Notes under the pieces: generated by a model | Seen by the model: only the letters and a program-made list of their open reading frames with translations | The model's database searches: none | Told to the model about the DNA's origin: nothing | Translations under genes and position numbers: made by a program | Assembly: GCA_022779365.1 (NCBI GenBank) | Contig: JALFSI010000015.1 | Location: forward strand, 13,698-77,697 | DNA: 64,000 nt | Direction of reading: 5' to 3' | DNA from: Clostridiales bacterium | Lineage (GTDB): Bacteria; Bacillota; Clostridia; Oscillospirales; Oscillospiraceae | Part shown: positions 3,646 to 45,242 of the stretch, one piece after another | How the letters are laid out: every line of letters begins with the position of its first letter | Numbering within the stretch: position 1 is the first letter of the stretch

Positions 3646-3721
3646 GGTACGCCCGACACGATTCGAACGTGCGACCTACAGAGTCGGAGTCTGTCACTCT
3701 ATCCAGCTGAGCTACGAGCGC
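3645..3721 (-). tRNA. tRNA-Arg (anticodon CCG), CCA encoded
   Basis: Reverse complement is GCGCTCGTAGCTCAGCTGGATAGAGTGACAGACTCCGACTCTGTAGGTCGCACGTTCGAATCGTGTCGGGCGTACCA. It folds as a cloverleaf with anticodon loop CUCCGAC and T-loop TTCGAAT. Confidence 0.92.
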
Positions 3722-3772: not shown

Positions 3773-3792
3773 GCCTAAACTGCGCGACTTTT

Positions 3793-8260: not shown

Positions 8261-8288
8261 AACGTTTTCCTCCTTGTATTCGCCCTTT

Positions 8289-8317
8289 ATCATATATTTT
8301 CTTTTGCCCCGCGTCAA
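8289..8317 (-). promoter_or_regulatory. putative gltX promoter
   Basis: Minus strand reads TTGACG - 17 nt - TATGAT, about 29 nt upstream of the gltX ATG. Confidence 0.45.
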
Positions 8318-8324
8318 TGCTTTG

Positions 8325-8353
8325 TTGCGAAATCCGAGCATATGTGGTAAAAT
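8325..8353 (+). promoter_or_regulatory. putative trpS promoter (extended -10)
   Basis: TTGCGA - 17 nt - TAAAAT, with TG one base upstream of the -10. About 43 nt upstream of the trpS ATG. Confidence 0.45.
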
Positions 8354-8396
8354 ATTTGTACTTATGTGAAAAATACGATAGACAGAGGGTATCACC

Positions 8397-29287: not shown

Positions 29288-30505
29288 ATGAAAAAGTTCA
29301 TCGCTCTCCTTCTTGCAGTCGTGATGGTCCTCGGTCTGGTCGCCTGTGCGTCCGGCACCAAGGATACTGCAGAAAAGGACACCGCCGCTCCGGCTACCGA
29401 CGCTCCGGCTACCGACGCTCCCGCTGCCGACGATGCTCCCGCGACCGACGCTCCCGCTGCTGAGACCCCCGCTGCCGAGGGCACGAAGGTCTACAACGTT
29501 GCCTACCTCGTCAACGGCAACCTGGGCGACAAGTCCTTCTTCGACTCCGCCGAGGCTGGTCTGGAGACTCTGAGAGACGACGGCCGCATCACCCTGCGCA
29601 CCATCGAGATGGGCGGCACGGAGGAAGATCAGGCTTCCTGGCAGTCCAACCTGGACGAGGTCGCCGCTTCCGAAGAGTATGACATCATCATCTGCGGTAC
29701 TTATCAGATGCCCGACTACCTGCAGGCAGTCGCCACCAAGTACCCGGATCAGAAGTTCATCATTTTCGACGACAACACCCATGTCGGCGAGAACAGCAAC
29801 GTTCTGAACATCACCTACAAGCAGAATGACCTCGGCTTCATCGTCGGCGTTTTCGCTGCCAACATGACTGTTGACACCAACGTCGCCAACATGAACTCCG
29901 ACGCCGTCCTCGGCTTTGTCGGCGGCATCGATTCCCCGGTCATCAACGACTTCCTGCTCGGCTACATCGAGGGCGCGCAGTATGTCAACCCCGACATCAA
30001 GATCGACACCCGTTACACCGGCAACTATATCGACACTGCCATCGCCAAGGAATACGCGCTGTCCATGATCAACGACAACAAGTGCGACATCATCTGGGGC
30101 GTGGCTGGCAACTCCGGCAACGGCGCGGCGGAAGCTGCTCTGGAAACCGGCAAGGCATGGTTCATCGGCGTTGACTCCGATCAGGAGCTGACCTTCTCCC
30201 CGGATCTGGCTGCTCTGACGCTGACCTCGGGTCTGAAGAACATCGGCAACTCCCTCATCTGGGTCTTTGACCAGCTTGATGCGGGCAAGGAATACTGGGG
30301 CACTGAGATCTCCCTCGGCGTTGCAGAGGGCGGCGTCGGTGTTGTGACCGACAAGAACTACAACACCTACGCTTCTGCGGATGTCAAGGCTGCTGTTGAC
30401 GCTGCGATCGCCGGCATTCTCGACGGCTCCATCGTTGTTGACTCCGCTCTGACCGAGGCTGGCGCTGCGAAGGTCGCCGAGCTGAGAGAGGCTGTCCGTC
30501 CGTAA
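29288..30505 (+). CDS. BMP-family (PnrA/Med/TmpC-like) nucleoside-binding ABC substrate-binding lipoprotein
   Basis: Signal peptide with lipobox MKKFIALLLAVVMVLGLVAC, a PA(T/A)D repeat linker and a Bmp-type body (FVGGIDSPVINDF, GVDSDQ). Confidence 0.9.
   Translation: MKKFIALLLAVVMVLGLVACASGTKDTAEKDTAAPATDAPATDAPAADDAPATDAPAAETPAAEGTKVYNVAYLVNGNLGDKSFFDSAEAGLETLRDDGRITLRTIEMGGTEEDQASWQSNLDEVAASEEYDIIICGTYQMPDYLQAVATKYPDQKFIIFDDNTHVGENSNVLNITYKQNDLGFIVGVFAANMTVDTNVANMNSDAVLGFVGGIDSPVINDFLLGYIEGAQYVNPDIKIDTRYTGNYIDTAIAKEYALSMINDNKCDIIWGVAGNSGNGAAEAALETGKAWFIGVDSDQELTFSPDLAALTLTSGLKNIGNSLIWVFDQLDAGKEYWGTEISLGVAEGGVGVVTDKNYNTYASADVKAAVDAAIAGILDGSIVVDSALTEAGAAKVAELREAVRP
29387..29479 (+). repeat. 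tandem about 15-nt coding repeats (APATD pentapeptide linker)
   Basis: gctccggctaccgac occurs twice, followed by diverged units. They encode APATDAPATDAPAADDAPATDAPAAETPAAE. Confidence 0.8.
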
Positions 30506-30542
30506 GTGAAAACCAAAGCGAAGAGTATATTCTGAGCTTAAC

Positions 30543-30573
30543 CAACGAGGGGGCTCTTGCAGCCCCCTCGTTG
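30543..30573 (+). other. intercistronic stem-loop after the SBP gene
   Basis: 13-bp stem caacgagggggct / agccccctcgttg with loop cttgc and no clear U-tract. Confidence 0.5.
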
Positions 30574-30585
30574 CCTATTTAAATG

Positions 30586-30620
30586 ACCTCGTAGAGTTTT
30601 GCGCCCGCAGGCGCAAAATA
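30586..30620. repeat. REP-like repeat, copy 1 of module B
   Basis: acctcgtagagttttgcgcccgcaggcgcaaaata matches the reverse complement of 48155-48188. Confidence 0.5.
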
Positions 30621-30741
30621 AAATTTTGGGCGGCAGGCGCTTCTGCCTGTGGAGCACACAAGCTGCACAGCTTGTATCCCCCGCAGACAGAATTGACGCT
30701 GTTGTTAGAACGAGAGAAACTGATCACAGGAGGTTTGGAAA

Positions 30742-32322
30742 ATGCCAAACGAACAAACGGCGCGTCCGGGCGAAGAATATGTCGTCCAGATGAAGGGGAT
30801 CACCAAGGTGTATCCCAACGGCGTCGCCGCCAACCAGAACGTGGACCTGTTCGTCCGTAAGGGCGAGATCCACGCGCTGATGGGCGAAAACGGCGCCGGC
30901 AAGTCCACACTGATGAAAATGCTGTTCGGATTGGAGCAGCCCACCAGCGGTGAGATCGTCATTGGCGGCGAGCCGCTGAGCCTGTCGTCCCCGTCAGTCG
31001 CCATCGCGCACGGCATCGGCATGGTGCACCAGCACTTCATGCTCGTGCCCAGCCTGACGGTCGCGGAAAACATGGTGCTCGGCATGGTCCCGAAAAAAGC
31101 CATGTTCATCGACCAGGCAAAGGCGATCGAGATCACCCGCGAATACGCCGAGCGCTTCAACCTCCATGTTGAGCCGGAGGCAAAGGTCGCGGACATCCCC
31201 GTCGGCATGAAGCAGAAGGTCGAAATTCTCAAGGCGCTCGTGCGCGGCGCAAAGATCCTCATCCTCGACGAGCCGACCGCCGTTCTGACCACGCAGGAAA
31301 CGCGCGAGCTCTTTAAGGAGCTTATCAGCCTTAAGGATCAGGGCTACACCATCATCTTTATCTCCCACAAGCTCAACGAGATCATGGAGATCACCGACCG
31401 CCTGACCATCCTGCGCGGCGGTCGCAGCATGGGCGTTTACAACACCAAGGACGTCACGAAAGAAGAAATTTCCCGCCTGATGGTCGGGCGCGACGTCGTG
31501 CTGAGTCTCCAGAAGGATAGGGCACAGCCTACCGACACGGTGCTGCGCGTGCGCGATCTGGAATACGTCAACGAGTGGGGCAAGAAAATGCTCGACAAGG
31601 TCTCGTTCGACGTGCGCCGCGGTGAAATTCTCGGTATCGCGGGCGTGGAGGGCAACGGTCAGAAAGAGCTGGTCGATATGCTCTTCCACTTTAACGAGCC
31701 GGACTCCGGCAGCATGAGCGTATGCGGCAAGTCGATCAATGGCTGCTCGCAGCGTGCGCTGCGTGAAATGGGCGTTGCGCTCGTTCCGGAAGATCGTATG
31801 CTCTTCGGCATCGCCTCAACAGCGTCGATTGAGGAAAACATCATCTCTGACCGCTCCGGCGCAAAGCGTCTGAATAACGGACCTCTGTTTAACATGAAGG
31901 CGATCCACGCCGAGTCCGAGCAGCTCGTCAAGGAATTTACCGTGCTCTGCAAATCCCCGCAGCAGCAGGTCGGGATGCTCTCCGGCGGCAACATCCAGAA
32001 GGTCGTCGTCGCCCGTGAGTTCTCCAGCGACCCGGTGCTCATCCTTGCCGACCAGCCCACACGCGGCATCGACGTCGGCGCGACGGAGTTCATCCGCAAA
32101 AAGCTGGTGGATCTGTCCCGCTCGGGCATCGCCGTGCTGCTCGTCTCCGCCGACCTCAACGAGGTCATGGAGCTTTCCGACAGCCTGATCGTCATGCATA
32201 ACGGTCATATCGCCGCCTACTTTGAAGATACCTCTGACCTGTCCGATGAATTTATGGGTGAGTATATGCTGGGTCTCAAGCAGCAGGACGAGGCGGAGAT
32301 CAGGAGGGTTTGCCATGACTAA
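30742..32322 (+). CDS. ABC transporter ATP-binding protein, duplicated ATPase (nucleoside/sugar CUT2 type)
   Basis: Two NBDs: Walker A GENGAGKST, signatures such as LSGGNIQKV, and Walker B ILILDEPT / LILADQPT. AGGAGG RBS. Confidence 0.92.
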   Translation: MPNEQTARPGEEYVVQMKGITKVYPNGVAANQNVDLFVRKGEIHALMGENGAGKSTLMKMLFGLEQPTSGEIVIGGEPLSLSSPSVAIAHGIGMVHQHFMLVPSLTVAENMVLGMVPKKAMFIDQAKAIEITREYAERFNLHVEPEAKVADIPVGMKQKVEILKALVRGAKILILDEPTAVLTTQETRELFKELISLKDQGYTIIFISHKLNEIMEITDRLTILRGGRSMGVYNTKDVTKEEISRLMVGRDVVLSLQKDRAQPTDTVLRVRDLEYVNEWGKKMLDKVSFDVRRGEILGIAGVEGNGQKELVDMLFHFNEPDSGSMSVCGKSINGCSQRALREMGVALVPEDRMLFGIASTASIEENIISDRSGAKRLNNGPLFNMKAIHAESEQLVKEFTVLCKSPQQQVGMLSGGNIQKVVVAREFSSDPVLILADQPTRGIDVGATEFIRKKLVDLSRSGIAVLLVSADLNEVMELSDSLIVMHNGHIAAYFEDTSDLSDEFMGEYMLGLKQQDEAEIRRVCHD

Positions 32323-33478
32323 GAAACGCCAATTTGTATTTTCGCTCGTCCGCGGCGCGCTGGCGGTCTTCATCGCGCTGCTGGTCGCAGCCGTGCTGAT
32401 CTTCATCAGCGCCGACGGGGAAACGCTGGCAGATAAATTTGCCCTCACCGGCAACGCGCTCAAGCAGCTCCTGATCGGTCCGCTGTTCAAAACGAACTCC
32501 GCCGGTGAGATCGGCGCATTCCAGTTCAAGCGTCTGACCGACGTGCTCGCTTCTATGATCCCCACGATCTTCACGGCGCTGTCCGTGTGCGTGATGTTCT
32601 CCGCCAACCAGTTCAACCTTGGCGCGGAGGGCGGCTGTATGCTCGGCGGCTTTGCCGGCGGCATGATCGCCGTGTATGTGCCGATGGCAGCGGGGCTGCA
32701 CCCCCTCGTCTGCATCCTCTGCGGCGGCATCACCTGTGCGCTCATCATGCTCATTCCGGCGGTCCTCAAGGCGCGGCTGGACGTGAGCGAAATGGTTTGC
32801 TCGCTGATGCTCAACTACATCATCATGTATGTCATCAAGTTCCTGATGAATACGTTCATCGCCGACAAATCCAAGGGGCAGGTGCAGTCGAGCGCCTTCT
32901 TCGAGACGGCAAAGCTCCCCCAGCTCGTTGACAACGGCTCGATGCTCTCCGTCGGCTTCCTCATCGCGATCGTTATGGTCGTGCTGATAGGGCTGTTCAT
33001 GTACCGCACCCGCTGGGGCTATGCCATCCGCATGATCGGCATCAACCAGGACTTTGCGATGTATTCCGGCATGGATGTCGCCGGCATCATCGTCCTCAGC
33101 CAGGTCATCGGCGGCTTCCTCGCCGGTATGGGCGGCTCGATCGAGGTGCTCGGGCGCTTCTCCTACTACAACTGGACGTCCCTCCCCGGTTACGGCTGGA
33201 CGGGCGTGACCATCGCCATTCTGGCGGGCAACAACCCGCTGTATGTGCCGCTGGCATCGTTCTTTATGGCATACCTCACCAAGGGCTGCGCGCTGATGTC
33301 CACCTACGCCGAGGTCCCGGCGCAGCTCATCGACATCGTGCAGGGCGTCATCTTCCTGTTCTTCGCCGCCGAGCAGTTCCTGGCAAAGTACCGCCAGAAG
33401 CTCGTGGTGCGCACCGCGCAGGAGGAGCTCGCCAAGAAAGCCGCTGCCAGTCAGGAAGGAGGCGCTGTAAATGCTTAA
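32315..33478 (+). CDS. ABC transporter permease (BMP/nucleoside system, first permease)
   Basis: Polytopic membrane protein. CAGGAGGG RBS. Overlaps the ATPase stop by 8 nt. Confidence 0.86.
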   Translation: MTKKRQFVFSLVRGALAVFIALLVAAVLIFISADGETLADKFALTGNALKQLLIGPLFKTNSAGEIGAFQFKRLTDVLASMIPTIFTALSVCVMFSANQFNLGAEGGCMLGGFAGGMIAVYVPMAAGLHPLVCILCGGITCALIMLIPAVLKARLDVSEMVCSLMLNYIIMYVIKFLMNTFIADKSKGQVQSSAFFETAKLPQLVDNGSMLSVGFLIAIVMVVLIGLFMYRTRWGYAIRMIGINQDFAMYSGMDVAGIIVLSQVIGGFLAGMGGSIEVLGRFSYYNWTSLPGYGWTGVTIAILAGNNPLYVPLASFFMAYLTKGCALMSTYAEVPAQLIDIVQGVIFLFFAAEQFLAKYRQKLVVRTAQEELAKKAAASQEGGAVNA

Positions 33479-34451
33479 TTTTCTGAAAATGCTTGCAACG
33501 CCGGAGTTCTTCTTCTCGATCATCCGCATTTCCGCGCCGATCTTGTTTGCAACGCTCGGCGCGATCGTGGTCGAAAAGGCGGGCTTCTGCAACCTGGGTC
33601 TCGAAGGTCTGATGATGTTCTCGGCGCTTGCCGGCTCGCTCGTCAGCTACTACGCCAGCAGTTGGCTCTGGGGTCTGCTCGCCGCGCTCATCGTGGGCAC
33701 AGGTCTGGCGCTGATGATGGGCTTCTTCGCCTTTAAGCTCCGCACGAACATCACCATGGTCGGCATCGCCGTCAATATGATGGGCTCGGGCGGTACGCTC
33801 TTCCTCTGCAAGGTCATCACCAACCTCACCGAGGGCAAGGCGATGGCGTCCTCGACGGGTCTGATCACCAAGGCGCTGTGCATCCCCGACATCCAGATCC
33901 CGCTGCTGAACAAAATTCCGTTCCTCGGGGGGATCATCTCCGGGCACAGCCTGCTGACGTATCTGGCGTTCATCCTGTGCTACGTCACGTTTGTCATCCT
34001 GTATAAGACGAGCCTTGGTCTCAACATCCGCGCGGTCGGCGAGAACCCCAACGCGGCATCCTCCGTCGGCGTGTCGGTGCTGAAGATCAAATACATCGCC
34101 ATCGCCTACTCGGGTCTTATGGCAGGCTTCGGCGGCGCGTTCATGTCGATGTCCTACGCCCAGGGCTGGAGTCTTGACATGGTCGCCGGACGCGGCTTCA
34201 TCGCGCTGGCGGCGCAGGCAATGGGCAGCGGCGAATGTCTGGGCGGTATGCTCTCGTCGCTGATCTTCGGCTTCGCGCAGGCGCTCGGCATCAAGTTCTC
34301 GGCGATCGGTCTGGATTCCAACCTTGCCTCGCCGATCCCCTACGCCGTGACCATCATCGGTCTGCTGATCTTCGCGCTTGCGCAGCGCAGGGGCGGCAAG
34401 CGGCGCAATACCGCCAGCCTCAAAAAGGCTGCGGCAAAGGCAGCAAAATAA
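33471..34451 (+). CDS. ABC transporter permease (BMP/nucleoside system, second permease)
   Basis: Polytopic membrane protein. Overlaps the upstream permease by 8 nt. Confidence 0.86.
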   Translation: MLNFLKMLATPEFFFSIIRISAPILFATLGAIVVEKAGFCNLGLEGLMMFSALAGSLVSYYASSWLWGLLAALIVGTGLALMMGFFAFKLRTNITMVGIAVNMMGSGGTLFLCKVITNLTEGKAMASSTGLITKALCIPDIQIPLLNKIPFLGGIISGHSLLTYLAFILCYVTFVILYKTSLGLNIRAVGENPNAASSVGVSVLKIKYIAIAYSGLMAGFGGAFMSMSYAQGWSLDMVAGRGFIALAAQAMGSGECLGGMLSSLIFGFAQALGIKFSAIGLDSNLASPIPYAVTIIGLLIFALAQRRGGKRRNTASLKKAAAKAAK

Positions 34452-34551
34452 ACGTATTCACAAGGGCTGCCTGCAATTGCAGGCAGCCTTTGGCGTTTCA
34501 AAGCACGAGCTTGAAGCGCCTTTATAAAAGCCTGAGATTCTGGAGGTACAC

Positions 34552-35502
34552 ATGAACGAACAAACCCGGATCCCTGTGATCCTTGACGGCGACCCCGGTC
34601 ATGACGATGCCATCGCCTGGACGCTGGCAAAGGCGTCGGGGCGCATGGACATCCTTGCCGTGACGTCGGTCGCGGGCAATCAGACCATTCAGAAAACGAC
34701 CTACAACACGCAGCGTATCTGCACACTGCTCGGCATTGACGCGCCGATCGCACAGGGGCGTCCGCGCCCGCTCATCGAGCCGCCCATGAACGCGCCGTCG
34801 GTGCACGGCGAGTCAGGGCTGGACGGTCCTCCCCTGCCCGAGCCTGCGATGGGGCTGTCGGAGCTGTCGGCGTGCGAGTTGATGGCAAAGACCCTGCGCG
34901 AGAGTCTCACACCTGTTACCATCATCTCCACAGGTCCGCTCACGAACACCGCGGCGCTGCTGCTGGCGCACCCGGAGCTGAAAGAAAAGATCGCGCGCAT
35001 CTCGCTCATGGGCGGCGGCATCGCCTACGGCAACTGGACGCCCGCGGCGGAGTTCAACATCCTCGTCGATCCCGAAGCGGCAAAGATCGTCTTCCGCTCC
35101 GGCGTGCCGATCTTAATGGCGGGGCTGGATGTGACGGAAAAGGCGCTCATTTTGCCGGAGGACTTCCGGCGCATCGCCGCCATCGGAAACCCTGTCGCGG
35201 ACATCGTAGCGCAGTGGCTGGAGTTCTTCTACATTTTCCACAAAAACCTCGGCTATGACGGCGCGCCGATGCACGACCCGTGCGCGGTCATGGCGCTGCT
35301 GCACCCGGAGGTGTTCACGATGAAGCCGCTGTATGTGCAGATCGAGACCGCCGGCAAATACTGCCGCGGCGCGACCGTGGGCGACCTGCTGGGCGTCACC
35401 GGGCACGCGCCCAACGCCACCTGCATTCTGAACGTGGACCGCAAACGGTTCGCCGACCTGCTGGTGGACGCCATGCGCTTTTATGGGGAGGGTCAGAAAT
35501 GA
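34552..35502 (+). CDS. nucleoside hydrolase (IUNH family)
   Basis: N-terminal fingerprint VILDGDPGHDDAIA, plus AEFNILVDPEAA and HDP motifs. Confidence 0.9.
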   Translation: MNEQTRIPVILDGDPGHDDAIAWTLAKASGRMDILAVTSVAGNQTIQKTTYNTQRICTLLGIDAPIAQGRPRPLIEPPMNAPSVHGESGLDGPPLPEPAMGLSELSACELMAKTLRESLTPVTIISTGPLTNTAALLLAHPELKEKIARISLMGGGIAYGNWTPAAEFNILVDPEAAKIVFRSGVPILMAGLDVTEKALILPEDFRRIAAIGNPVADIVAQWLEFFYIFHKNLGYDGAPMHDPCAVMALLHPEVFTMKPLYVQIETAGKYCRGATVGDLLGVTGHAPNATCILNVDRKRFADLLVDAMRFYGEGQK

Positions 35503-36431
35503 ATACATATCCCGTCTGGATCGACTGTGACATCGGCGTGGATGATGCCATCGCGATCATGGCGGCGCACGCGCTGCCGCAGATCGACCTGCTCGGCATC
35601 TCCACTACCTGCGGCAATGCCTCGCAGGAGAACACCTACCGCAACGCACACCGGCTGAACGGGCTGCTGGGCACGGATTACCCGGTCTATCGCGGCGCTG
35701 CTTCGCCGCTGTGCCGCGAGCTGCTCACCGCCTCCCATTTCCATGGAAACGACGGTCTGGGCGATGTGGACCTGCCTGTGCCGCCGGACGCGGTGTACCG
35801 CGTGGAAGCGGCGTGGGACGCGCTGTATGAGGCGGCGGTCAAATACCCGCACACACTGCGCCTGATCGCGCTCGGACCGCTCACGAATGTCGCCACCGCC
35901 TTTTCCAAGTACCCCGACCTGCCGGGGCTGCTGCACTCCATGCTCATCATGGGCGGTGCGGCGGTCGGCGGCAACGTCACCCCGGCGGCAGAGTTCAACA
36001 TCTACTGCGACCCCGAGGCGGCGGAGCTGGTGTTCGATTCCGGCGTGCACATCGTCATGTGCGGGCTGGACGTCACGCTCAAGGCGCTGCTGCGTCCCGC
36101 CGACTGGGACGAGCTGGCGGCGACCGGCACGCGGGCTGGCAAATTCGTGCGCGACTGCGTACAGTGCGCGTGGCAGTTCTCGCAGAAATTTGGGCTGGAG
36201 GGCGTTGCGATGCACGACTCCTGCCCCGTCCTCTACCTTGCGCACCCGGAGCTGTTCCGCGCGGAAGAGGCGGGCGTAAAGATTGAGACCCGCAGCACGC
36301 TCACGCTCGGCAAAACCGTCACCGACCTCTACAGCGACAAGCAGTTCGACGAAAAGAACGCCACCGTTGTTCTGGACGTAGACCGCGACCGCTTCATCGA
36401 AATTTTGAAGGATTGCATCAAAGCCATCTGA
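35499..36431 (+). CDS. nucleoside hydrolase (IUNH family, second paralog)
   Basis: WIDCDIGVDDAIA, AEFNIYCDPEAA and HDS motifs. ATGA overlap with the first paralog. Confidence 0.9.
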   Translation: MNTYPVWIDCDIGVDDAIAIMAAHALPQIDLLGISTTCGNASQENTYRNAHRLNGLLGTDYPVYRGAASPLCRELLTASHFHGNDGLGDVDLPVPPDAVYRVEAAWDALYEAAVKYPHTLRLIALGPLTNVATAFSKYPDLPGLLHSMLIMGGAAVGGNVTPAAEFNIYCDPEAAELVFDSGVHIVMCGLDVTLKALLRPADWDELAATGTRAGKFVRDCVQCAWQFSQKFGLEGVAMHDSCPVLYLAHPELFRAEEAGVKIETRSTLTLGKTVTDLYSDKQFDEKNATVVLDVDRDRFIEILKDCIKAI

Positions 36432-36688: not shown

Positions 36689-39600
36689 TTATTTTGCGAT
36701 CTTCTGCGCGTAGCGGGTCAGGATGGCGGCGACCTGCGCGCGGGAGGCGTTCTCCTGCGGCGCGAGGCGACCGCTGCTGCCCTGGATGAGACCGCTTTCC
36801 ACGCACCATGCCATCGCTTCACGAGCGTAGGCGGAGACGCTGTCGTAATCCGCGAACGTCTGGATGCTCGCAGGCTCTGCCGTCACGTCGTAGCCGCAGA
36901 GCTTTGCGTAGCGGTGGAGCATCGCCGCGAGCTGCTCGCGGGTGATGCTGCGCTCCATGCCCGTGCCGTCAGACACGCCGTTTGCCATCGCCCAGGTCTG
37001 CCCCGCCGCGTACCACGGCGTGCCGGAGGTGTTTTCGCCCTCCAGACGGGCGAGGATCGTGACGATCATGCCGCGCGTCGTATCAGTGCTCGGGCTGAAC
37101 ATCGTGCGCGACGTGCCGGTCATCAAGCCGTTTTCATAGGCGTATTCCACGCCACCATAGTACCAGCTGCCTGCCGGAACATCGGTGAACGGCAGACCGT
37201 TATCATCTGCGGCAGAATCCTTCGCCGCGTCGTTCACGGAGGGCTTTGCCACCGTGCCGGTGCTGCTGCGGATGGTGTCGTATGCCTCGATGGCGTCAAA
37301 GAGCTTGTCGCGGTTCTTCACCTGCTCCTTGTGTGCGTCGTCCAGCGCTTCATACGCGCGGCGTGCGTCGCTGATGGCGCTGCCGCTGTTCTTCGTCACG
37401 TCGCCGATGGCGTCGATGAGTTCTTCGGTCCGGCGCGCTGCGAGCGTCGCTTCCGCCTCCGTCAGGCGGTCGAGGTTATTGACCTGCGACTGTTCAGCAT
37501 CCGTCAGCGCGTCATACGCCGCGCGCGCGGCTTCGATCTGTGCCGCGTCCGCCGTGGTGATGTCGCCCGTGTCCGGGAGCTGGTCGATGGTCGCCTCCAC
37601 GTCCGACACGGCGTCGCCCGTCACGGTGATGACGCACACGCCCGGACCGCTGACGCTGCTGCCCGCAGCCGCCACATAGTAAGTACCCGGCTTGCGGAAG
37701 CTGACTGCCAGCTCCGCGCTGCCGTTCGTCGTGCCAAGCTCCGTCCACCTTGTCACATCGGTGTCAGCCTCAGAAAGGTCGCTCGTGACGTAGACCTTGG
37801 TGTTTTTCAGTGTCGCATCCTGCGGCGTGCCGTTCCGCATATCCGCCCCGGCGCGGTGCAGAACGAGCGTCTGCGCCTCGCGTGCCGTCAGCCCCAGACG
37901 ATCGACCGCCGTGCCGTCCGGCTTTGCAAGGTAGGCATAGCCCGCCGCAGACGACGTCCAGTAGTCCTGCTTGCTGTACAGACCGACCTCAACGAAGTCG
38001 CCGTTTTCCAGCGTCATGTAGTCCGCCGTCGCGCCGATGCCCGGCTTCATGAGCGGGTATGTGTGATTCAGGAAATAGGTCAGGTTGGACTTGACGTCCC
38101 AGAATTTTGCGAGAGTCATCGAGCCGAATGTGCCACTGACCGTCAGCGCGTCCGTGCCGTTTGCCGCCTTCCCGCCGTTCAGCTTGTACTGCTCCACCAT
38201 ACGGATGAGCAGATGCAGCATCGTCGGCTGCTCAACGACCTTGCCGTTCGACTTCACGCTGAACTCTTCCAGACCGTAGTCTGCAAGGTCGAACCAGGTG
38301 ATCTTCACCGGCACGGCCGCCAGCATCGTCTGGTCGGCGTCATTGCCGGTCAGATACTCGCCGTCGCGCGAGAGGGAGAAGTAAACGGTCTTGGTGCGCC
38401 CCACCGTTGTCTCGCGGGTGCGCGTCCAGTGCGCGTAGATGGTGGTGGCTTCGGTAAAGACGGTATCCGCCGTCACGGCGCTGCCGCCGTCCTTTGCGGT
38501 GAACCAGCCGTCAAAGCGGTAGTTCCAGCGGTAGCCGTCCGCAGGCAGCGTGCCGAGCGCGCCGGTCGAGGTCGTGCGGACGTCCGCCGTGTCGCAGTAG
38601 CCGCCGTTCGGGTCGAGCGTGATGAGATAGCTGCCGTTTGCCTCCCACGTCAGGATGGGATAGCCGTCGTTGAGCTGGGCGCTCACGCCGTCGCGCTCAT
38701 AGCAGGTGACGTAGGCTTCAGAGTTCAGCGCCGTCACGAACGACGCCGCCTTCATCTCGGCTGCCGTGCGCGCCCTTGCGCCGTTTGGCTGGAACGCCGC
38801 GAGGAGCGGCGCTTTATAGAAGCTGCCCTGCTTGATGGGGATATAGTCGTCGCCGCCAAAGCTGCCGAACGCGCCGCCGCAGTGAACGGCAGCATCGACC
38901 GTGCCCACGTTGTAGCAGCCGAGCGGTGCGGACGCAACATACACATTGCCCGCAACACCGCCCAGATAATCTTTGCCGGTCACGCTGCCGGTATTATAGC
39001 AGCCAAGGACCTCGGCGTAGTTCTGCACCTCGCCGATCACGCCGCCCACAGACTTGGCGTCCGTTCCGCCAACGCTGCCCTTGTTGCGGCTGTAACGCAC
39101 CACGCCGTAGGAGTTCGCGCCCGCGATGCCGCCGACCTGCTGCGCGCCGGTGACGGCAGCGTCGTTGCCGCAGCGCTCCACCACGTTATTAAGCCCCACG
39201 CAGCCGACGATGCCGCCGACCTGAATGTTGCCGCTGACGCTGCCGGTAAAGAAGCAGTCGGTGATGCGCGCATTGCGCGCCTCGCCGCCTCCCGCATCCG
39301 CCATCGCGCCCGCGATGCCGCCGGTCTGGCTGACGTCGCCCGTGGCGGCGACCGTGCCGCTCACGCTCAGGTCTTTGACGAGACCGCCCTTGCCGATGAG
39401 CCCGCTCTTGCCGATGAGCCCGAAGAAGCCGACTTCATCCTCCGCACGGCTGACCTTCAGCCCCGTGATGCGCTTGCCATTGCCGTCAAACGTGCCCGTA
39501 AACGGATGCCCGGACTTGCCGATGGGATACCAGTTGGCAGTCGTGAGCGCGATGTCATTCAGCAGCTTCGCGGAAATACTGCCGTTGCCGCCGTTGACTT

Positions 39601-42600
39601 CGCTTGCAAACCAGTGAAGCTCTTTTTCAGTTGTGATCTGATACACGCCGCTGACATTGACAGGCTCATCGCAGTCCGCAAGCTCCCAAAGTCCGGCAGC
39701 GTCTGCCGTTTTGATCTCCTGCGTGGTCGCCTGCTTCACGCCGGGCTTTGTGCCGCTCGTGACCTTGACGGTCAGCGTCTTGCCCACGTCGTCCGCCGTA
39801 ACGGTGTACGCTTCGCCCGTGTCGACCTGCTTCGCGCCGCGATACCATGTATACGTCAGCGTGCCCTGATCGGTCTCGGAGGAGGCAAAGCTCGCGGTGA
39901 GCGTGCGCCCGACGACTGCCGCGCCGCGGATGCTGACAACGCCTTCCAGACCCTCGACCTTGCCGCTCGCATCTGCCTTCAAAACGCCGGAGGCATCGGC
40001 GCACAGCGCCTTGACGCGCAGCGTTCTGCCGGTGAGCGTATCGGGGATGGTGTATTCCGCCGCGTCAGTGATGGCGACGACCGCGTCGTCATTGTCATCG
40101 TAGCTGTAGTACCAGACGTAGAGCAGCCCGTTCGCGTCGCCGGTGTAATTTGCCGTCAGCTTGCCGTTGACCTCTACCTTGCCGGTAAGGGTCAGCTCGC
40201 CGCCGATGGCGGTCTTTTCAGCGAGGAGCTTCATTGCCTTCGCCAGCGCCTGCGGCATGGCGTCCAGCTCGTCCTGCGAGCTGATCTTATTGTTCGTGGG
40301 ATAGCCGTCGTCCTCGTAATCACCGCCGGTCACATCGCCGACGTTATAGAGGTTCTCGAAAACCACCTTGCTGAGATTCAAGCCCACCGCGCCGCCGACT
40401 GCGCCGCCGAGGGCTTCGACGTTACCCGCATTGTATGCGCCCTTGACCGTGCCGTTGTTCCTGCCGACCACGCCGCCGACATAGCCGTGCAGGGTGCTCA
40501 CCGTGCTGACGATCGCGCCGTTGTTGGCGCAGCTCGTGACCGTGCCGCCGTCATTGTCAGCCGCAACACCTGCCGCCATCATCCCTTTGGCGCGGATGAT
40601 GCCGCTGTTGGCACAGCCCGTGATCGTACCCTTTGTGTTGCTTGCCGCGATACCGCCGACGTACCTGTCGCCGGTGACCGCCGCATTGTTCACGCAGGTT
40701 TCGACCGTTCCGCTGTTCACCGCCGTGATACCGGCAGCGCAGTTGCCGCCCTTGAGCGTACCGTGCGTGGTGCAGCTCGTGATCGTGCCGGTATTGCTTG
40801 CCGCCAGAATGGCGCTGTTGTCGCCGCCGACAACAATGCCGGTCACGTTAAGATTCTTGAGCTTACCGCCGTTCGCGGCAAACAGTGCCGCGCTGCCGCG
40901 CTCATTTTTGCAGTAGAGATTCGTGATGGCAAAGTCCGCGCCGTCCAGCTCGCCCGTGAAGCCGCCGTCCACCGGCGTCCAGTCGCGGTTGTTGAGGTCG
41001 ATGTTCGCCGTCAGAACGCCCCGGATGGCGGGCGTCGCCGCCGCGTGGTCCGCGAACCACTTGAGGTCCGCCGCGCTTGCGATCTGGTACACGCCGCCAT
41101 CAGTCTTAGGCTCAGCCGCGGAGGCTTTGCCGTCCCAGCCGTCAGGTTCGATGGCGGGATGGTCGGGATCGACCGGCTCACCCGAGCCGCTGTTCTGCCA
41201 CGCGAGGATGGGATAGCCGCGGTTGATGTTCTCGCTGTCCGCCGTGAACTTGTCGCTGAGGTCGGCGCTCGTCAGGGCCTTCAGCTCGTCCTCCGTTTTG
41301 AGGGTCGCCGTGCCGTTCTGGATGGCGTAGCCATTGAGGTTGCCGACGGTCTCCGTGACCGCCTCGTTGCTCAGCCCATAGACCTTTTCAAGCGTTCTTT
41401 GCTGTGGGTCTTCCAGTCTCCCGAGGATGCTGCCTGCTTTTACGGCGGTCGGCACGGTGCTGCTGTACGAATTTTTCAGCGTGCCATAACGGAAATTGCC
41501 GAGCAGTCCGCCCGCTGCGCCAGAGGGCGATGTAGCAGTCACAGAGCCGGTATTGTAGCAGTCCGTGATCGTGCCGCCGTTATACAGATCACCTACCAAA
41601 CCGCCGACCAGACTTGCTCCCTTCACCTTGCCGGTGTAGAAGCACTCTGTCATGGCAGTGGAGCTTTTTGACTGCACGCAGCCGACAACGCCGCCTATGC
41701 GAGTGCCCTCGCCGGTGACGGTCGCTGCGCTGGAGGATCTTGTGATCGAGCCGTCCACATAACCGGCAACACCGCCGACATAACTCGATATGCCGTAAAC
41801 TGTTACCGAGCTTGTAACATGGCAGTTTTCCACATTATACGCATCGCCAGCGACCGCGCCAACACTTTTGCCACGGTTTGCAGCGGTGCTTCTGTTTTCG
41901 ATCAAACTGTCCGAAATGGTCAGGTTGCAGATCATGCTGCCCTCATCCGCATATCCGATCAGTCCCGTATAACTGGCACGCTTATCCGCGCTGGTGGACT
42001 TTGCAAGAATGTATAGCCCGCTGATCGTGTGACCATCGCCGTCAAAAGTACCCTTGTACTTATCGGAGGTGTTATAGTCCTTATACCAGCCGATCGGCGT
42101 CCACTTATGGAGCTTGCTCGTGTCCTCGATCGTAACATCCTCGTTGATGCAAATATCCGCCGTGAGCTTTACAGAATCGGAGGTTTTGCCGTTTTCATTG
42201 AACCACATCAGTTCATCCGGCGAGCCGATCTGATATACGCCGTTTTCATCCTTCTGCGGCTCGGTATAGGTCTTGCCGTCCCACGCGGTCTGGACCTCCA
42301 GCACCGCGCCGGGGATGCTCGCCGCGCCGTTTTCAACGGTGAAGTCGCCGCTGACCGACTTGTAGCCGGAGCAGGAGATGGTATAGTGATAGCTGCCGTT
42401 CGGCAGGCGGTAGCTTCCGTCAGCCTCCGCCGTCAGCGTTTTCTGCCACACAGGGCAGGTAACGGTGACGGTCGGGTCGATCGCCGCGCCGTCCGCCGCC
42501 GTGATCGCGCCGACGCTCACGGGGTAGGTATCCAGCGCCGTAAGCGTGACGCTCTGCGTGTCCGCCGTCTCGTTGCCGGTCACGGTAAACGTGCCCGTCG

Positions 42601-44263
42601 CGTCCTGATAGCCGAACGCCTTGATGGTATAGCTGTACTGGCTGTCAGACTTCGGCAGGCGGTAGGTGCGCCCGCCGGTGACCTCCGGGGTCTGCCCATC
42701 CACGACCAGCTCCGCGCCCTCGTCCGGGTCGATCTCAAATTTTACGGTGTAGAGCTTGATATTCAGGCTGACGTTGATGGTCTGCCCGCCGTAGGCGACG
42801 GTGAACGTGCCCGCCGCGTCGTCGTGCTCGTCCGCTGTGACCTTGTAGTCATAGTCGCCGTTCGTCAGTTCGTAGGTGTGCACGCTCACCGGGTCGATCG
42901 GCACGCCGTCCTGCGAGACGGTCAGCGCCGCGTCCTCCGGCGAGAGGGTAAACGTGACGGTATATTTCGCCGTCGGGTCTTGCCAGCCGAGGATGGGATA
43001 GCCGCCATTTGCATCCGCCACATAGCTGCCGCCGAGCAGACCGGGCATATCGGGTGCTTTCAGCTCGCTCTCCGTCTTAGCCGTGATCGTACCGCTGCCA
43101 TTCGCCCCGTCGCCAGTCGCCGCAGTGCCAGACAGGTAATAGCAGTTGGTGGCGGTGATGAGACCCGGCGTCACCGCACCGCTGTAACTTTTCCCCGCAC
43201 TACTGCCAACGATACCGCCAACGGTAATGCCAGCGGTCGTGCTGTCATTGTTCGTGATCGTACCGGCGTTGTAGCAGTTCGCAACCGTTGCCGTATTGCT
43301 CGTGCTGGTCGGGTCGCCGACAATACCGCCAACACCCTTGGCATATTTTTCCGAAAATTTCGGACTCGGGGTATTGCACGTCACGCTGCCTAGATTGTAG
43401 CAGCTTTCGATTTTCGTGTTCGCGCCGCTGACGCCACCCACGATGCCGCCGATCTCATACGCGCCCGTGATCGCGCCGCTGTTGACGCACAGCGTAATGC
43501 TGCCGTTGCCTCCATAGTTGCCGGCAATGCCAGCCGTGCGCTTGAGTGCGCTGGTGACTGCACCAAAGTTGGCGCAGCGTTCGATTGTTGTGCCAGTGGC
43601 GGTCGCTACAACGCCGCCGACGTAGTACTCATATACGCCGGACTTACCTTCTGAGGTAATGCTGCCGAAATTCATGCAGCCGGTCAGGCTGCTGCCGGTG
43701 TATGTGTAGGCTACAACACCCGCAACATAGCCCTTTTTAACGCCTGTCACGTTCACCTTATTTGTGCAGTTTTCCATCGTGACCGGCGAGCCATACGCGA
43801 CGATGCCTGCCGCATACGCGGACGAAGTCGCGGAAGTCTTTACGCTGCCATCCACAGTCAGATTCTTGATCGTGCCGTTTTTGACATAGCCAAACAGCCC
43901 TTGATACCCCGTGCTGGCATTGTCGATATGCAGCCCGGAGATCGTGTGCCCCGCGCCGTCAAACGTACCGCCATAGTAGGTATAGTCGCTGTAGCTGTTA
44001 TACTTGCCGATCGGCGTCCAATCCCCGCTCAGGCTGCTCAAGTCGATATTCGCCGTGAGCTTGCCGCAGAGCGTGGATGTGCCTTTCTTGGTCGCATTGA
44101 CCTTGTCGCGGAACGTCACAAGATCGTCCGCCGTGGCGATGAGGTACGGGTCATCCTTCGTACCGCTGCCGCTGAGGTCTGCCGCAAAGGCGACGGTGGG
44201 CAGCAGCCCCACGATCATCACCAGCGCCAGAACCCAAGCCAGAATGCGTTTTTTCATCTGCAT
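36689..44263 (-). CDS. giant (2524 aa) secreted cell-surface protein: four GLUG-repeat beta-helix-like modules, Ig-like/PEGA-like domains, a Listeria-Bacteroides repeat, a DUF4430-like segment and three C-terminal SLH domains
   Basis: Signal peptide MQMKKRILAWVLALVMIVGLLPTVAFA. Recurrent Y(G/K)GTFDG.GHTISGL and GG(I/V/L)(V/A)G repeats. Modules end in GYPIL(G/A/T)W. YRFDGWF repeat. C-terminal FTDVP...SLH repeats. AGGAGG RBS. Confidence 0.88.
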   Translation of the reverse strand: MQMKKRILAWVLALVMIVGLLPTVAFAADLSGSGTKDDPYLIATADDLVTFRDKVNATKKGTSTLCGKLTANIDLSSLSGDWTPIGKYNSYSDYTYYGGTFDGAGHTISGLHIDNASTGYQGLFGYVKNGTIKNLTVDGSVKTSATSSAYAAGIVAYGSPVTMENCTNKVNVTGVKKGYVAGVVAYTYTGSSLTGCMNFGSITSEGKSGVYEYYVGGVVATATGTTIERCANFGAVTSALKRTAGIAGNYGGNGSITLCVNSGAITGAYEIGGIVGGVSGANTKIESCYNLGSVTCNTPSPKFSEKYAKGVGGIVGDPTSTSNTATVANCYNAGTITNNDSTTAGITVGGIVGSSAGKSYSGAVTPGLITATNCYYLSGTAATGDGANGSGTITAKTESELKAPDMPGLLGGSYVADANGGYPILGWQDPTAKYTVTFTLSPEDAALTVSQDGVPIDPVSVHTYELTNGDYDYKVTADEHDDAAGTFTVAYGGQTINVSLNIKLYTVKFEIDPDEGAELVVDGQTPEVTGGRTYRLPKSDSQYSYTIKAFGYQDATGTFTVTGNETADTQSVTLTALDTYPVSVGAITAADGAAIDPTVTVTCPVWQKTLTAEADGSYRLPNGSYHYTISCSGYKSVSGDFTVENGAASIPGAVLEVQTAWDGKTYTEPQKDENGVYQIGSPDELMWFNENGKTSDSVKLTADICINEDVTIEDTSKLHKWTPIGWYKDYNTSDKYKGTFDGDGHTISGLYILAKSTSADKRASYTGLIGYADEGSMICNLTISDSLIENRSTAANRGKSVGAVAGDAYNVENCHVTSSVTVYGISSYVGGVAGYVDGSITRSSSAATVTGEGTRIGGVVGCVQSKSSTAMTECFYTGKVKGASLVGGLVGDLYNGGTITDCYNTGSVTATSPSGAAGGLLGNFRYGTLKNSYSSTVPTAVKAGSILGRLEDPQQRTLEKVYGLSNEAVTETVGNLNGYAIQNGTATLKTEDELKALTSADLSDKFTADSENINRGYPILAWQNSGSGEPVDPDHPAIEPDGWDGKASAAEPKTDGGVYQIASAADLKWFADHAAATPAIRGVLTANIDLNNRDWTPVDGGFTGELDGADFAITNLYCKNERGSAALFAANGGKLKNLNVTGIVVGGDNSAILAASNTGTITSCTTHGTLKGGNCAAGITAVNSGTVETCVNNAAVTGDRYVGGIAASNTKGTITGCANSGIIRAKGMMAAGVAADNDGGTVTSCANNGAIVSTVSTLHGYVGGVVGRNNGTVKGAYNAGNVEALGGAVGGAVGLNLSKVVFENLYNVGDVTGGDYEDDGYPTNNKISSQDELDAMPQALAKAMKLLAEKTAIGGELTLTGKVEVNGKLTANYTGDANGLLYVWYYSYDDNDDAVVAITDAAEYTIPDTLTGRTLRVKALCADASGVLKADASGKVEGLEGVVSIRGAAVVGRTLTASFASSETDQGTLTYTWYRGAKQVDTGEAYTVTADDVGKTLTVKVTSGTKPGVKQATTQEIKTADAAGLWELADCDEPVNVSGVYQITTEKELHWFASEVNGGNGSISAKLLNDIALTTANWYPIGKSGHPFTGTFDGNGKRITGLKVSRAEDEVGFFGLIGKSGLIGKGGLVKDLSVSGTVAATGDVSQTGGIAGAMADAGGGEARNARITDCFFTGSVSGNIQVGGIVGCVGLNNVVERCGNDAAVTGAQQVGGIAGANSYGVVRYSRNKGSVGGTDAKSVGGVIGEVQNYAEVLGCYNTGSVTGKDYLGGVAGNVYVASAPLGCYNVGTVDAAVHCGGAFGSFGGDDYIPIKQGSFYKAPLLAAFQPNGARARTAAEMKAASFVTALNSEAYVTCYERDGVSAQLNDGYPILTWEANGSYLITLDPNGGYCDTADVRTTSTGALGTLPADGYRWNYRFDGWFTAKDGGSAVTADTVFTEATTIYAHWTRTRETTVGRTKTVYFSLSRDGEYLTGNDADQTMLAAVPVKITWFDLADYGLEEFSVKSNGKVVEQPTMLHLLIRMVEQYKLNGGKAANGTDALTVSGTFGSMTLAKFWDVKSNLTYFLNHTYPLMKPGIGATADYMTLENGDFVEVGLYSKQDYWTSSAAGYAYLAKPDGTAVDRLGLTAREAQTLVLHRAGADMRNGTPQDATLKNTKVYVTSDLSEADTDVTRWTELGTTNGSAELAVSFRKPGTYYVAAAGSSVSGPGVCVITVTGDAVSDVEATIDQLPDTGDITTADAAQIEAARAAYDALTDAEQSQVNNLDRLTEAEATLAARRTEELIDAIGDVTKNSGSAISDARRAYEALDDAHKEQVKNRDKLFDAIEAYDTIRSSTGTVAKPSVNDAAKDSAADDNGLPFTDVPAGSWYYGGVEYAYENGLMTGTSRTMFSPSTDTTRGMIVTILARLEGENTSGTPWYAAGQTWAMANGVSDGTGMERSITREQLAAMLHRYAKLCGYDVTAEPASIQTFADYDSVSAYAREAMAWCVESGLIQGSSGRLAPQENASRAQVAAILTRYAQKIAK

Positions 44264-44356
44264 TTCCTCCTGCTTCTTTGGAGCGATGCTCCATTTTTAA
44301 CAAAATCTCATTGTCTTTGGGAGACCCAAAGACACGCAAGGCGCGCGCCTTGCGAC

Positions 44357-44389
44357 AAAAAAATCTGTGCAGCCATACCGCTGCACAGA
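44357..44389 (-). terminator. leader intrinsic terminator (candidate riboswitch expression platform)
   Basis: Minus strand reads tctgtgcagc-ggtatg-gctgcacaga followed by TTTTTTT. It lies about 95 nt upstream of the giant gene ATG. Confidence 0.6.
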
Positions 44390-44433
44390 CTGATCCCGTT
44401 TGGGCGGTCCGCTGCGGATGTGGCGCAGAGACT

Positions 44434-44544
44434 GGCGCGGTCCAACGTATCTGACTTATCCCAAACGGGCTTCACAGTGACCTTCTCGCGGGGCTTTGCA
44501 CCCCATTCCGCCGCCGGTGGCTCCCGCCCCGGCAGGATCGCGCC
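44434..44544 (-). promoter_or_regulatory. candidate cobalamin (B12) riboswitch aptamer
   Basis: The minus-strand RNA has a closing helix GGCGCGAUCC/GGACCGCGCC. Core strings GGAAUGGGGUGCAAAGCCCC, GGUCACUGUGAAG and AUAAGUCAGAUAC resemble the conserved cobalamin core and B12 box. Not verified by a covariance model. Confidence 0.5.
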
Positions 44545-44565
44545 GATATGAAATTTTCCGTGGTT

Positions 44566-44594
44566 ATTCTAGCGCGCGCCGCTGCAAAAAGCAA
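44566..44594 (-). promoter_or_regulatory. putative promoter of the leader/giant gene
   Basis: Minus strand reads TTGCTT - 17 nt - TAGAAT, about 20 nt upstream of the aptamer closing helix. Confidence 0.5.
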
Positions 44595-44657: not shown

Positions 44658-45242
44658 TTAAAATGTTCTGGCAAGCTCTGCCGCCTTGTCCATCGCGGCT
44701 TTGAGCGACCCTTCGCCGTCAAATCCGGCGACATCCATGCCGTCGGCGGCAACGCAGTCGTAGCGGTCGATGCCGAAAAATTTGCACAGTGCCTGCATAT
44801 AGCGGCTGCCCATTTCCAGCTCGTCACCCGTGTAAAAGCCGCCGCGCGTGGTAAGATAGACCATGCGCTCCGCGCGGCAACGCCCCACAAGCCCCGCCTC
44901 GGTCGAAGCGAAGGTGATGCCGTCGAGCGAGACCTGCTCGATGTAGACCTTCAGGAGCGCCGGGAAGCTCAAGTCCCAGAACGGTGCGGAGACCACGATC
45001 TCGTCCGCCGCTGCGAACTGGTGCGCCAGATCAAAGCGCGGGTGCGACAGGTTGCCCTGTTCGAGCAGCTTCTGCCGCTCCTCCAGATAGTCGCCGAAGA
45101 AATAGCGCGGCTGGAGCTGCATGAGGTCCAGATGCGTCACCGCGCAGTCCTGCGGCAGCGCGTCTAAAAACGCGCGGCTCAGCCGCAGCGTGCGTGATTC
45201 CTCGCCCCGGATGCAGCAATCGACCCACAGAACGTTTTTCAT
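44658..45242 (-). CDS. FMN-dependent NAD(P)H oxidoreductase (azoreductase/quinone reductase, flavodoxin-like fold)
   Basis: 194 aa. Flavodoxin_2-type layout (VLWVDCC, IVVSAPFWDLSFPALLKVYIE). Confidence 0.78.
   Translation of the reverse strand: MKNVLWVDCCIRGEESRTLRLSRAFLDALPQDCAVTHLDLMQLQPRYFFGDYLEERQKLLEQGNLSHPRFDLAHQFAAADEIVVSAPFWDLSFPALLKVYIEQVSLDGITFASTEAGLVGRCRAERMVYLTTRGGFYTGDELEMGSRYMQALCKFFGIDRYDCVAADGMDVAGFDGEGSLKAAMDKAAELARTF

Follow-up and report, generated by a model that had tools for sequence, protein, structure and literature searches.

A probable variant cobalamin riboswitch in the leader of a giant surface-protein gene from an Oscillospiraceae contig

Introduction

Cobalamin riboswitches are the main tool for predicting B12-responsive genes in microbiomes. 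The locus described here raises the question of whether the leader of a gene for a giant surface protein belongs among them. The gene lies on the minus strand of a 64,000-nucleotide (nt) stretch of DNA (contig JALFSI010000015.1, positions 13,698 to 77,697, assembly GCA_022779365.1, a Clostridiales bacterium of the Oscillospiraceae), referred to below as the window, and all positions are counted from its first letter. An initial annotation, made by reading the letters of the window, had described a cobalamin-riboswitch-like leader with its own terminator in front of this gene, as either a variant class or a false positive. From comparison with relatives, a covariance model and folding predictions, the leader was judged likely to be a functional member of an uncatalogued variant subclass of the cobalamin (corrinoid) riboswitch and to serve the giant GLUG/SLH gene as a transcriptional OFF switch.

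Class Cbl-I riboswitches carry a P2 module and a large P6 extension, whereas Cbl-IIa and Cbl-IIb riboswitches have no P2 arm and a small P6 (PMC7367189). A hybrid architecture is found in Bacillus subtilis yvrC, whose riboswitch has a P2 arm closed by a GNRA loop, a small P6 hairpin, an aptamer of ~120 nt and the usual L5-L13 kissing loop, and its combination of P2 and small P6 was suggested to define a possible further subclass (PMC7367189). The consensus of L5 in cobalamin riboswitches is UCCCG; in the corrinoid riboswitch of P. megaterium metE, P13 is held in place by a kissing loop between L5 and L13, and when this contact is lacking an antiterminator arises from the 3' side of P13, as demonstrated by compensatory mutagenesis (PMC10327014).

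Results

A family of leaders with covarying helices

A search pattern was derived from the core shared by the window and its relatives (GGTGNAANNCCNNGCGAGNNNGNCACTGTGA) and was found in at least 120 metagenomic stretches, mostly from gut samples, with 89 distinct cores. Members share the order P1, a P2 hairpin often closed by a GNRA loop, P3, GAAU, P4/L4 of the form GGGG-UG-N-AA-NN-CCCC, GCGAG-NNN-GGUC, ACUGUGA, a short variable P6, AUAAGUCAGAUA, the 3' strands of P3 and P1, and P13. The L4 T-loop, ACUGUGA and AAGUCAGAUA are shared with canonical cobalamin riboswitches, and L5 reads GAG-NN-GG in place of UCCCG; every member carries the signature GCGAG-NNN-GGUCAC, which is due in part to the way the search pattern was built. 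P6 varies from 14 to 108 nt among members. P1 occupies the same position with unrelated sequences and has at least 7 pairs in 51 of 54 members, and a stable P2 hairpin is found in 42 of 54; these are family-level counts, and the window's own row of the P1 search was disregarded because its offset missed the P1 of the window. A further hairpin, with a 7-nt loop CC-NNN-AC, lies 24-30 nt past AGUCAG and was assigned as P13/L13 by position and by analogy.

Covariation was scored on a MAFFT alignment of 56 non-redundant members that was not fitted to any structure, taking P3, P4, P6, P13 and a tentative L5-L13 helix together. Paired cells amounted to 85.7%, compared with 69.1% in shuffled alignments (0 of 500 shuffles reached the observed value). 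The covariation score was 0.479 versus 0.176 in shuffles, and fell to 0.09-0.13 when the 3' partners were slid by 1-3 columns. Changes on both sides of a pair were seen in P3 (5/5 pairs), P4 (2/4), P6 (5/5) and P13 (6/7), with the closing pair of P4 occurring as GC, AU, CG, GU and UA. P5 has at most 2 invariant pairs and is hence uninformative for covariation.

A covariance model, R1, was built from 54 members, with the window and the copy of a sister species (locus L017) excluded. Applied to the window, R1 returned a single match at 44389-44518 on the minus strand (98.3 bits, E = 1.9e-28) covering model positions 1-134, from P3 through P13 and its flank. The model gave 106 matches in 100 loci, mostly at 90-115 bits, and the score of the window lies within this main range. 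R1 also matched the canonical RF00174 site of another locus (L018), weakly, at 21.7 bits, a connection between the variant and the canonical class.

In contigs of the same species the leader of the window recurs at ~99% identity. Their few aptamer polymorphisms are structure-neutral: the P2 tetraloop changes from GGGA to GAGA, one G-C becomes G.U and one P3 G.U becomes G-C. The sister species, whose giant protein is 83% identical, has the same short element and replaces a P3 G.U with A-U. Within the species and between the two species, changes keep the structure, with the GNRA loop retained, G.U pairs turned into A-U or G-C, and one A.C mismatch repaired, a pattern that we read as selection on structure.

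Genes downstream and the candidate ligand

The first large open reading frames (ORFs) behind 39 variant copies include DUF4430 proteins (6), corrin methylases (TP_methylase, 3), CbiK (2) and a ribonucleotide reductase (1). Secreted giant proteins that carry Flg_new, SLH or GLUG domains are also numerous among them. Some variant copies (L142, L190 and L134) are followed by genes for small, cysteine-rich proteins that contain an FPCH motif (e.g. ...CEYFPCHKGADPEN...).

The contigs that encode more distant homologues of the giant protein (52-67% identity across the N-terminal 453 residues) were located. In one of these (L013) an RF00174 riboswitch (34.8 bits) precedes a FecR/DUF4430 gene and then the GLUG gene, in another (L016) canonical cobalamin motifs were recognised by eye, and two contigs (L012, L014) start at their edge with the 3' part of a canonical cobalamin riboswitch. 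A protein-based scan of GTDB genomes placed RF00174 elements directly or closely upstream of homologues in L018, L023, L025, L026 and L031 (35-88.5 bits). Other homologues stand behind the short variant instead (79-108 bits to R1): besides the sister species, these are an Oscillospiraceae metagenome-assembled genome (L020) and UBA11467 (L032), both with copies that Rfam misses, and the cultured Lachnospiraceae strain Hominifimenecus microfluidus CLA-AA-H215 (L019, NZ_JAJEQR010000035.1). The element of the cultured strain, at 3774-3905 before the giant-gene homologue, scores 79.2 bits to R1, does not fit the search pattern and is followed by two terminator-like hairpins.

The canonical RF00174 elements before homologues indicate that the giant gene family is B12-regulated in several Clostridia. 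Taken with the genes downstream of the variant copies, they point to a B12 regulon, from which we infer a corrinoid as the likeliest ligand. Other riboswitch classes have variant subtypes with changed specificity. With the family and architecture as described, the altered core (purine-rich L5, no CCUGCC tail) could likewise have led the element to sense a particular cobamide, cobinamide, another corrin precursor or an unrelated metabolite. Such a change would fit the systematic departure of L5 and of the B12-box tail from the canonical consensus, the failure of the Rfam models at the gathering cut-off on 23 of 23 variant sites, and the many regulated genes for giant surface proteins without a known B12 role. 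We regard it as unlikely, however, given that the downstream DUF4430, CbiK, corrin methylase and ribonucleotide reductase genes make up a classical B12 regulon, that the same gene family is found under canonical RF00174 in other taxa, and that canonical and variant elements stand side by side in one locus (L099).

In that locus the canonical RF00174 element lies beside two variant copies (8273-8512(-), 8551-8685(-) and 8847-8976(+)). Pairs of variant copies 1.3-1.5 kb apart were seen in several metagenomic loci (L121, L173, L182, L185 and L193). These multi-copy loci suggest arrays of separately B12-controlled surface-protein genes.

Architecture of the leader

The leader strings on which the initial annotation had relied, GGAAUGGGGUGCAAAGCCCC, GGUCACUGUGAAG, the hairpin CCCGUUUGGG (44469-44460) and AUAAGUCAGAUAC, are all present on the minus strand at the coordinates given for them. 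The full aptamer spans 44544-44434, and its elements are listed with the expression platform and the regulated gene in Table 1.

Table 1. Features of the leader and the gene that it precedes, in window coordinates
Feature	Positions	Strand	Description
Promoter-like site	44566-44594	minus	-35 TTGCTT 44594-44589, 17-nt spacer, -10 TAGAAT 44571-44566; putative function
P1 5' strand	44535-44544	minus	GGCGCGAUCC; pairs with 44443-44434 at 9/10 positions
P2 arm	44513-44533	minus	Hairpin GCCGG-GGC-GGGA-GCC-A-CCGGC with GNRA tetraloop, from folds; 21 nt, between P1 and P3
P3 5' strand and J3/4	44505-44512	minus	GGCG (44512-44509), then GAAU (44508-44505); 5/5 P3 pairs covary in the family
P4/L4	44490-44504	minus	GGGG-UGCAAAG-CCCC, T-loop-type hairpin GGUG-N-AA-NN-CC; 99% of P4 cells paired in the family
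P5/L5 equivalent	44479-44489	minus	GCGAGAAGGUC; loop GAG-AA-GG where the canonical class has UCCCG; from sequence
Junction	44470-44478	minus	ACUGUGAAG; invariant in the family; aligns to ACUGU of RF01482 and RF00174
P6 minimal hairpin	44460-44469	minus	CCC-GUUU-GGG, 10 nt; 5/5 P6 pairs covary in the family
J6/3 and P3 3' strand	44444-44459	minus	AUAAGUCAGAUA (44459-44448), first half of the B12 box, then CGUU (44447-44444)
P1 3' strand	44434-44443	minus	GGACCGCGCC; partner of 44544-44535
P13 hairpin	44412-44428	minus	CUGCG-CCACAUC-CGCAG; L13 = 44423-44417, presumed kissing-loop partner of L5
Antiterminator (predicted)	44374-44420	minus	44417-44414 with 44381-44378; 44412-44407 with 44390-44385; apical hairpin CCC-AAAC-GGG 44404-44395
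Intrinsic terminator	44357-44391	minus	12-pair stem 44391-44380/44373-44362, loop GGUAUG, U7 44363-44357; fold -21.0 kcal/mol
Second G+C-rich hairpin	44335-44354	minus	Weak U tail (CGCAAGGCGCGCGCCUUGCG UGUCUUU); between terminator and ribosome-binding site
Regulated gene	36689-44263	minus	2,524-residue secreted protein; signal peptide, GLUG repeats, Flg_new, C-terminal SLH; ribosome-binding site GGAGGA 44272-44267

The proposed closing helix was recovered between the same two segments and is present in the minimum-free-energy folds, with one A.C mismatch among the ten positions. As in the cobalamin clan, a GGAA junction precedes the L4 T-loop (GGAAU GGGG-UGCAAAG-CCCC, 44509-44490). The first half of the B12 box is represented by AAGUCAGAUAC (44457-44447). 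Its consensus, taken here as AGYCMGG-AGACCKGCC with the RF00174 alignment as a guide, was compared with the window: the CCUGCC tail is absent, and the variable 3' strand of P3 stands in its place. The UCCCG consensus of L5 is absent as well; the initial annotation had flagged a missing CCC and a missing ACCUGCC tail as deviations.

The terminator stem was found with its U7 tract and comprises 12 pairs where 10 had been counted. The promoter that had been read as TTGCTT-17-TAGAAT is present, and matches the consensus only moderately (3/6 at -35, 5/6 at -10); the site was not listed by a consensus scanner, and the sister species keeps it as TTGCCT-17-TAGAAT. On the 5' side of the leader lies a flavodoxin-like gene (44658-45242) with its own terminator (44648-44623).

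Predicted switching between antiterminator and terminator

The conserved P13 hairpin (44428-44412), whose 3' side competes with the 5' half of the terminator, had escaped the initial annotation. In folding predictions the antiterminator is the minimum-free-energy structure of the expression platform before the 3' half of the terminator exists (-19.1 kcal/mol, versus -6.2 kcal/mol for P13 alone), and once that half is present P13 and the terminator fold instead. The antiterminator pairing is kept by sequence variants, with A-U changed to G.U in strains and G.U changed to A-U in the sister species. An intrinsic terminator directly follows P13 in 38 of 51 family members, and the same competing folds are predicted in 21 of the 27 members with a detectable P13 and terminator.

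On the basis of this folding competition and of the mechanism established for metE, the leader is proposed to be a transcriptional OFF switch that would terminate at 44363-44357. With a corrinoid bound, L5 would contact the CC-initiated L13 and stabilise P13, P13 would keep its own 3' side, and the terminator (44391-44362) could then form, so that polymerase would stop at the U7 tract. With no ligand, P13 would have little stability of its own (-6 kcal/mol), the segment made up of its 3' side and flank (44420-44407) would pair with the 5' half and loop of the terminator (44390-44374), and the antiterminator so formed would allow transcription of the giant gene.

A different switching helix had been suggested in the initial annotation, and it can be framed as a rival mechanism in which the P6 segment 44469-44460 pairs with 44404-44395 when no ligand is bound, thereby opening up the aptamer and encroaching on the terminator at its base; read-through would then depend on this long-range helix and not on P13. 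The two segments are exactly complementary over 10 nt. When the 193-nt leader was dinucleotide-shuffled 500 times, 2.2% of the shuffles contained a long-range inverted repeat of 10 nt or more. The helix is kept in the sister species and, with a single G.U pair, in most conspecific contigs. It is also thermodynamically competitive: it is part of the structure predicted for the 197-nt leader without constraints (-86.3 kcal/mol, versus -83.5 kcal/mol for the aptamer with P13 and the full terminator), and the terminator stem is thereby shortened from 12 to 8 pairs. Those 8 G+C-rich pairs nevertheless survive in that fold, and in the antiterminator derived from P13 the segment 44404-44395 does no more than form the apical hairpin. 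As a feature of the family the complement was rejected, since p <= 0.05 was reached by 4 of 51 members, roughly as many as chance would give (the downstream region began 3 nt late for the window itself, which scored 7 rather than 10), and it is absent from the close relative in H. microfluidus (L019). The helix is thus real in this lineage and not family-wide; it could be an auxiliary helix of this lineage or arise incidentally from the presence of two CCC/GGG hairpins. We consider it improbable as the main switch. The P13-based switch is better supported by the folding models, and the two mechanisms are not mutually exclusive.

The L5-L13 contact

L5 (GAG-NN-GG) and L13 (CC-NNN-AC) could pair through their invariant GG and CC, and this putative kissing loop is the weakest link of the proposed mechanism. 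Across the family the three variable bases of L5 show at most a suggestive association with the L13 loop, since many members, those that combine UGG with CCGUCAC, are out of register. In L018 the canonical copy has an unusual L5, GAAAC, that matches CUUUCC in L13, which indicates that the contact does drift in this gene neighbourhood. The canonical class-I riboswitches before giant-protein homologues at L018 484-692 and L012 1-140 both have CAGAAACGG as L5, not UCCCG, and a downstream hairpin loop CUUUCCC; GAAA is complementary to UUUC, and the arrangement looks like another drifted kissing loop.

The giant protein and other loci in the window

Pfam searches of the whole giant protein and of residues 1946-2232 found no DUF4430 domain, and BLASTP of the giant protein against the DUF4430 protein of L013 gave no match. 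A homologue search with that region of the giant protein returned 13 matches, none annotated as B12-binding. A conserved module of ~260 residues (residues 1929-2215; 37619-38479, minus strand) recurs in proteins with dockerin, SLH or fn3 domains. Its AlphaFold2 model was confident (pLDDT 86, pTM 0.85); Foldseek comparison of this model with the PDB yielded generic beta-sandwiches but nothing at E <= 1e-3, and no Pfam family was assigned. The module appears to be an undescribed beta-rich domain.

Besides the second G+C-rich hairpin of Table 1, two hairpins lie between the terminator and the start of the gene. The first, GUCUUUGGG-UCU-CCCAAAGAC (44311-44331, minus strand), has a 3-nt loop that reads TCT, AGA, AGG or AGT among conspecific contigs (L001-L009) that are otherwise 99% identical; TCT and AGA are reverse complements, and the pattern looks like inversion of the loop or a hypervariable loop. 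The second, UGGAGCAUCGCUCCA (44279-44293), stands before the ribosome-binding site and is terminator-like on the plus strand, where no gene ends.

Elsewhere in the window, a plus-strand cluster (29288-36431), judged by reading translations only, appears to encode a BMP/Med-type lipoprotein, an ABC ATPase, two permeases and two inosine-uridine-type nucleoside hydrolases. This content would suggest nucleoside uptake and salvage.

In the window as a whole, the sole Rfam match at gathering level was a tRNA gene (3648-3721, minus strand, 60.2 bits).

Discussion

Several results weigh against a functional cobalamin riboswitch at this site. The Rfam 15 cobalamin clan CL00101 comprises RF00174, RF01482 and RF01689, and the curated gathering threshold was taken as the criterion; searches were run at four scales, on the whole window at the gathering cut-off and, at E <= 10, on 601, 156 and 131 nt. 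No cobalamin match at the gathering cut-off was obtained in the whole window, and the 601-nt and 156-nt searches at E <= 10 gave no match to the clan. The top match of the 131-nt search, RF01482 (AdoCbl), was filter-dependent and reached only 16.4 bits against a cut-off of 50. The 126-nt aptamer alone folds no better than shuffled sequences (z = -0.6), and the invariance of GCGAG...GGUCACUGUGA in the family was partly imposed by the search pattern. One variable L5-L13 pair (column 37 with 125) is standard in 62.5% of members compared with 41.7% in shuffles, which is only suggestive; the best contiguous L5-L13 helix averages 3.59 versus 3.33 nt (p ~0.04, 29 unique L5/L13 combinations); and the window copy pairs poorly, with GG/CC and GA/UC around a 3x3 mismatch. 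Finally, no B12-binding domain was recognised in the giant protein by Pfam, BLASTP or AlphaFold2 with Foldseek.

On Rfam alone the element would be dismissed, and the cobalamin search that the initial annotation had proposed as a check indeed yielded no significant match. The failure extends to the family: 23 of 23 variant sites (the window, L020, L032 and 20 further loci) scored below every Rfam gathering threshold; 2 of the 20 further loci also hold a separate canonical RF00174 elsewhere. The insignificant RF01482 alignment spans GGAA, L4, ACUGUGA, P6 and AAGUCAG in matching order, and the 302-nt leader folds better than shuffles (z = -4.7). As a condition that would refute the reading, the initial annotation had coupled a failed search with a leader not conserved in relatives. 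The leader is conserved, with covarying helices and a B12 gene context, and the reading as a cobalamin-riboswitch-like leader, possibly of a variant class, is supported.

The lack of a significant Rfam match, the weak kissing-loop complementarity of the window copy and the regulated protein without a detectable B12-binding domain would also be expected of a decayed cobalamin-riboswitch remnant, or of a protein-bound structured leader with a constitutive attenuator and no small-molecule sensing. We hold this to be very improbable. The window scores inside the main range of the family, the helices covary among over 50 diverged copies, polymorphisms within the species leave the structure in place, and terminator and antiterminator still compete in the predicted folds. 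On the R1 score and the covariation, chance resemblance was rejected, as was a decayed relic.

Among known systems, the variant subclass shares with RF00174 and Cbl-I the element order P1, P2 arm, P3, GGAA junction, L4 hairpin, P5/L5, ACUGU, P6 and AGUCAG-type J6/3, with P13 in the expression platform. It also shares their B12-related gene context, and canonical copies control homologues of the giant protein. It is not Cbl-I, in that the P6 of the window is a 10-nt hairpin with no P7-P11 extension. It departs from RF00174 in its GAG-NN-GG L5, in the missing CCUGCC tail and in an L13 that starts with CC, whereas the canonical L13 would be G-rich as the complement of UCCCG. The short P6 is shared with RF01482, the best, insignificant, Rfam alignment, and with Cbl-IIa/IIb (including RF01689). 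The variant differs from these in L5 and in its P2 hairpin arm: class II separates P1 from P3 by no more than a J1/3 bulge (PMC7367189), and the 21-nt P2 hairpin (44533-44513) places it outside the Cbl-IIa/IIb definition despite the short P6. In architecture the family is of the type of yvrC, which also combines a P2 arm and GNRA tetraloop (here GGGA) with a minimal P6. As in metE of P. megaterium, the antiterminator is more stable than P13 alone in the folds computed here; the logic was shown by compensatory mutagenesis in metE and is predicted here, and the L5 and L13 sequences differ. No description of such a variant was found in the literature searched, whose coverage was incomplete, so that a prior description elsewhere is possible.

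A wider interpretation is offered tentatively, as one that may well prove wrong. The elements would form a distinct and abundant corrinoid-riboswitch subclass with a re-wired L5-L13 contact (GAG-NN-GG facing a CC-initiated L13, versus UCCCG facing a presumably G-rich L13), unseen by current annotation pipelines. In gut Clostridia their regulon would take in arrays of giant GLUG, Flg_new and DUF4430 proteins that are secreted or anchored to the S-layer. BtuG and BtuH are surface corrinoid-capture proteins of Bacteroides, and these giant proteins might be their Gram-positive counterpart.

A subclass missed by Rfam 15, with at least 120 copies and often several per locus, leaves B12-regulated genes of gut Clostridia unannotated. 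With its altered L5 and L13 the subclass provides a natural experiment on the coupling of ligand binding to termination by a kissing loop, and the cultured carrier H. microfluidus CLA-AA-H215 makes the prediction directly testable. Many of the regulated genes encode giant cell-surface proteins, and this suggests that Gram-positive gut bacteria capture corrinoids or remodel their surface in a B12-dependent way.

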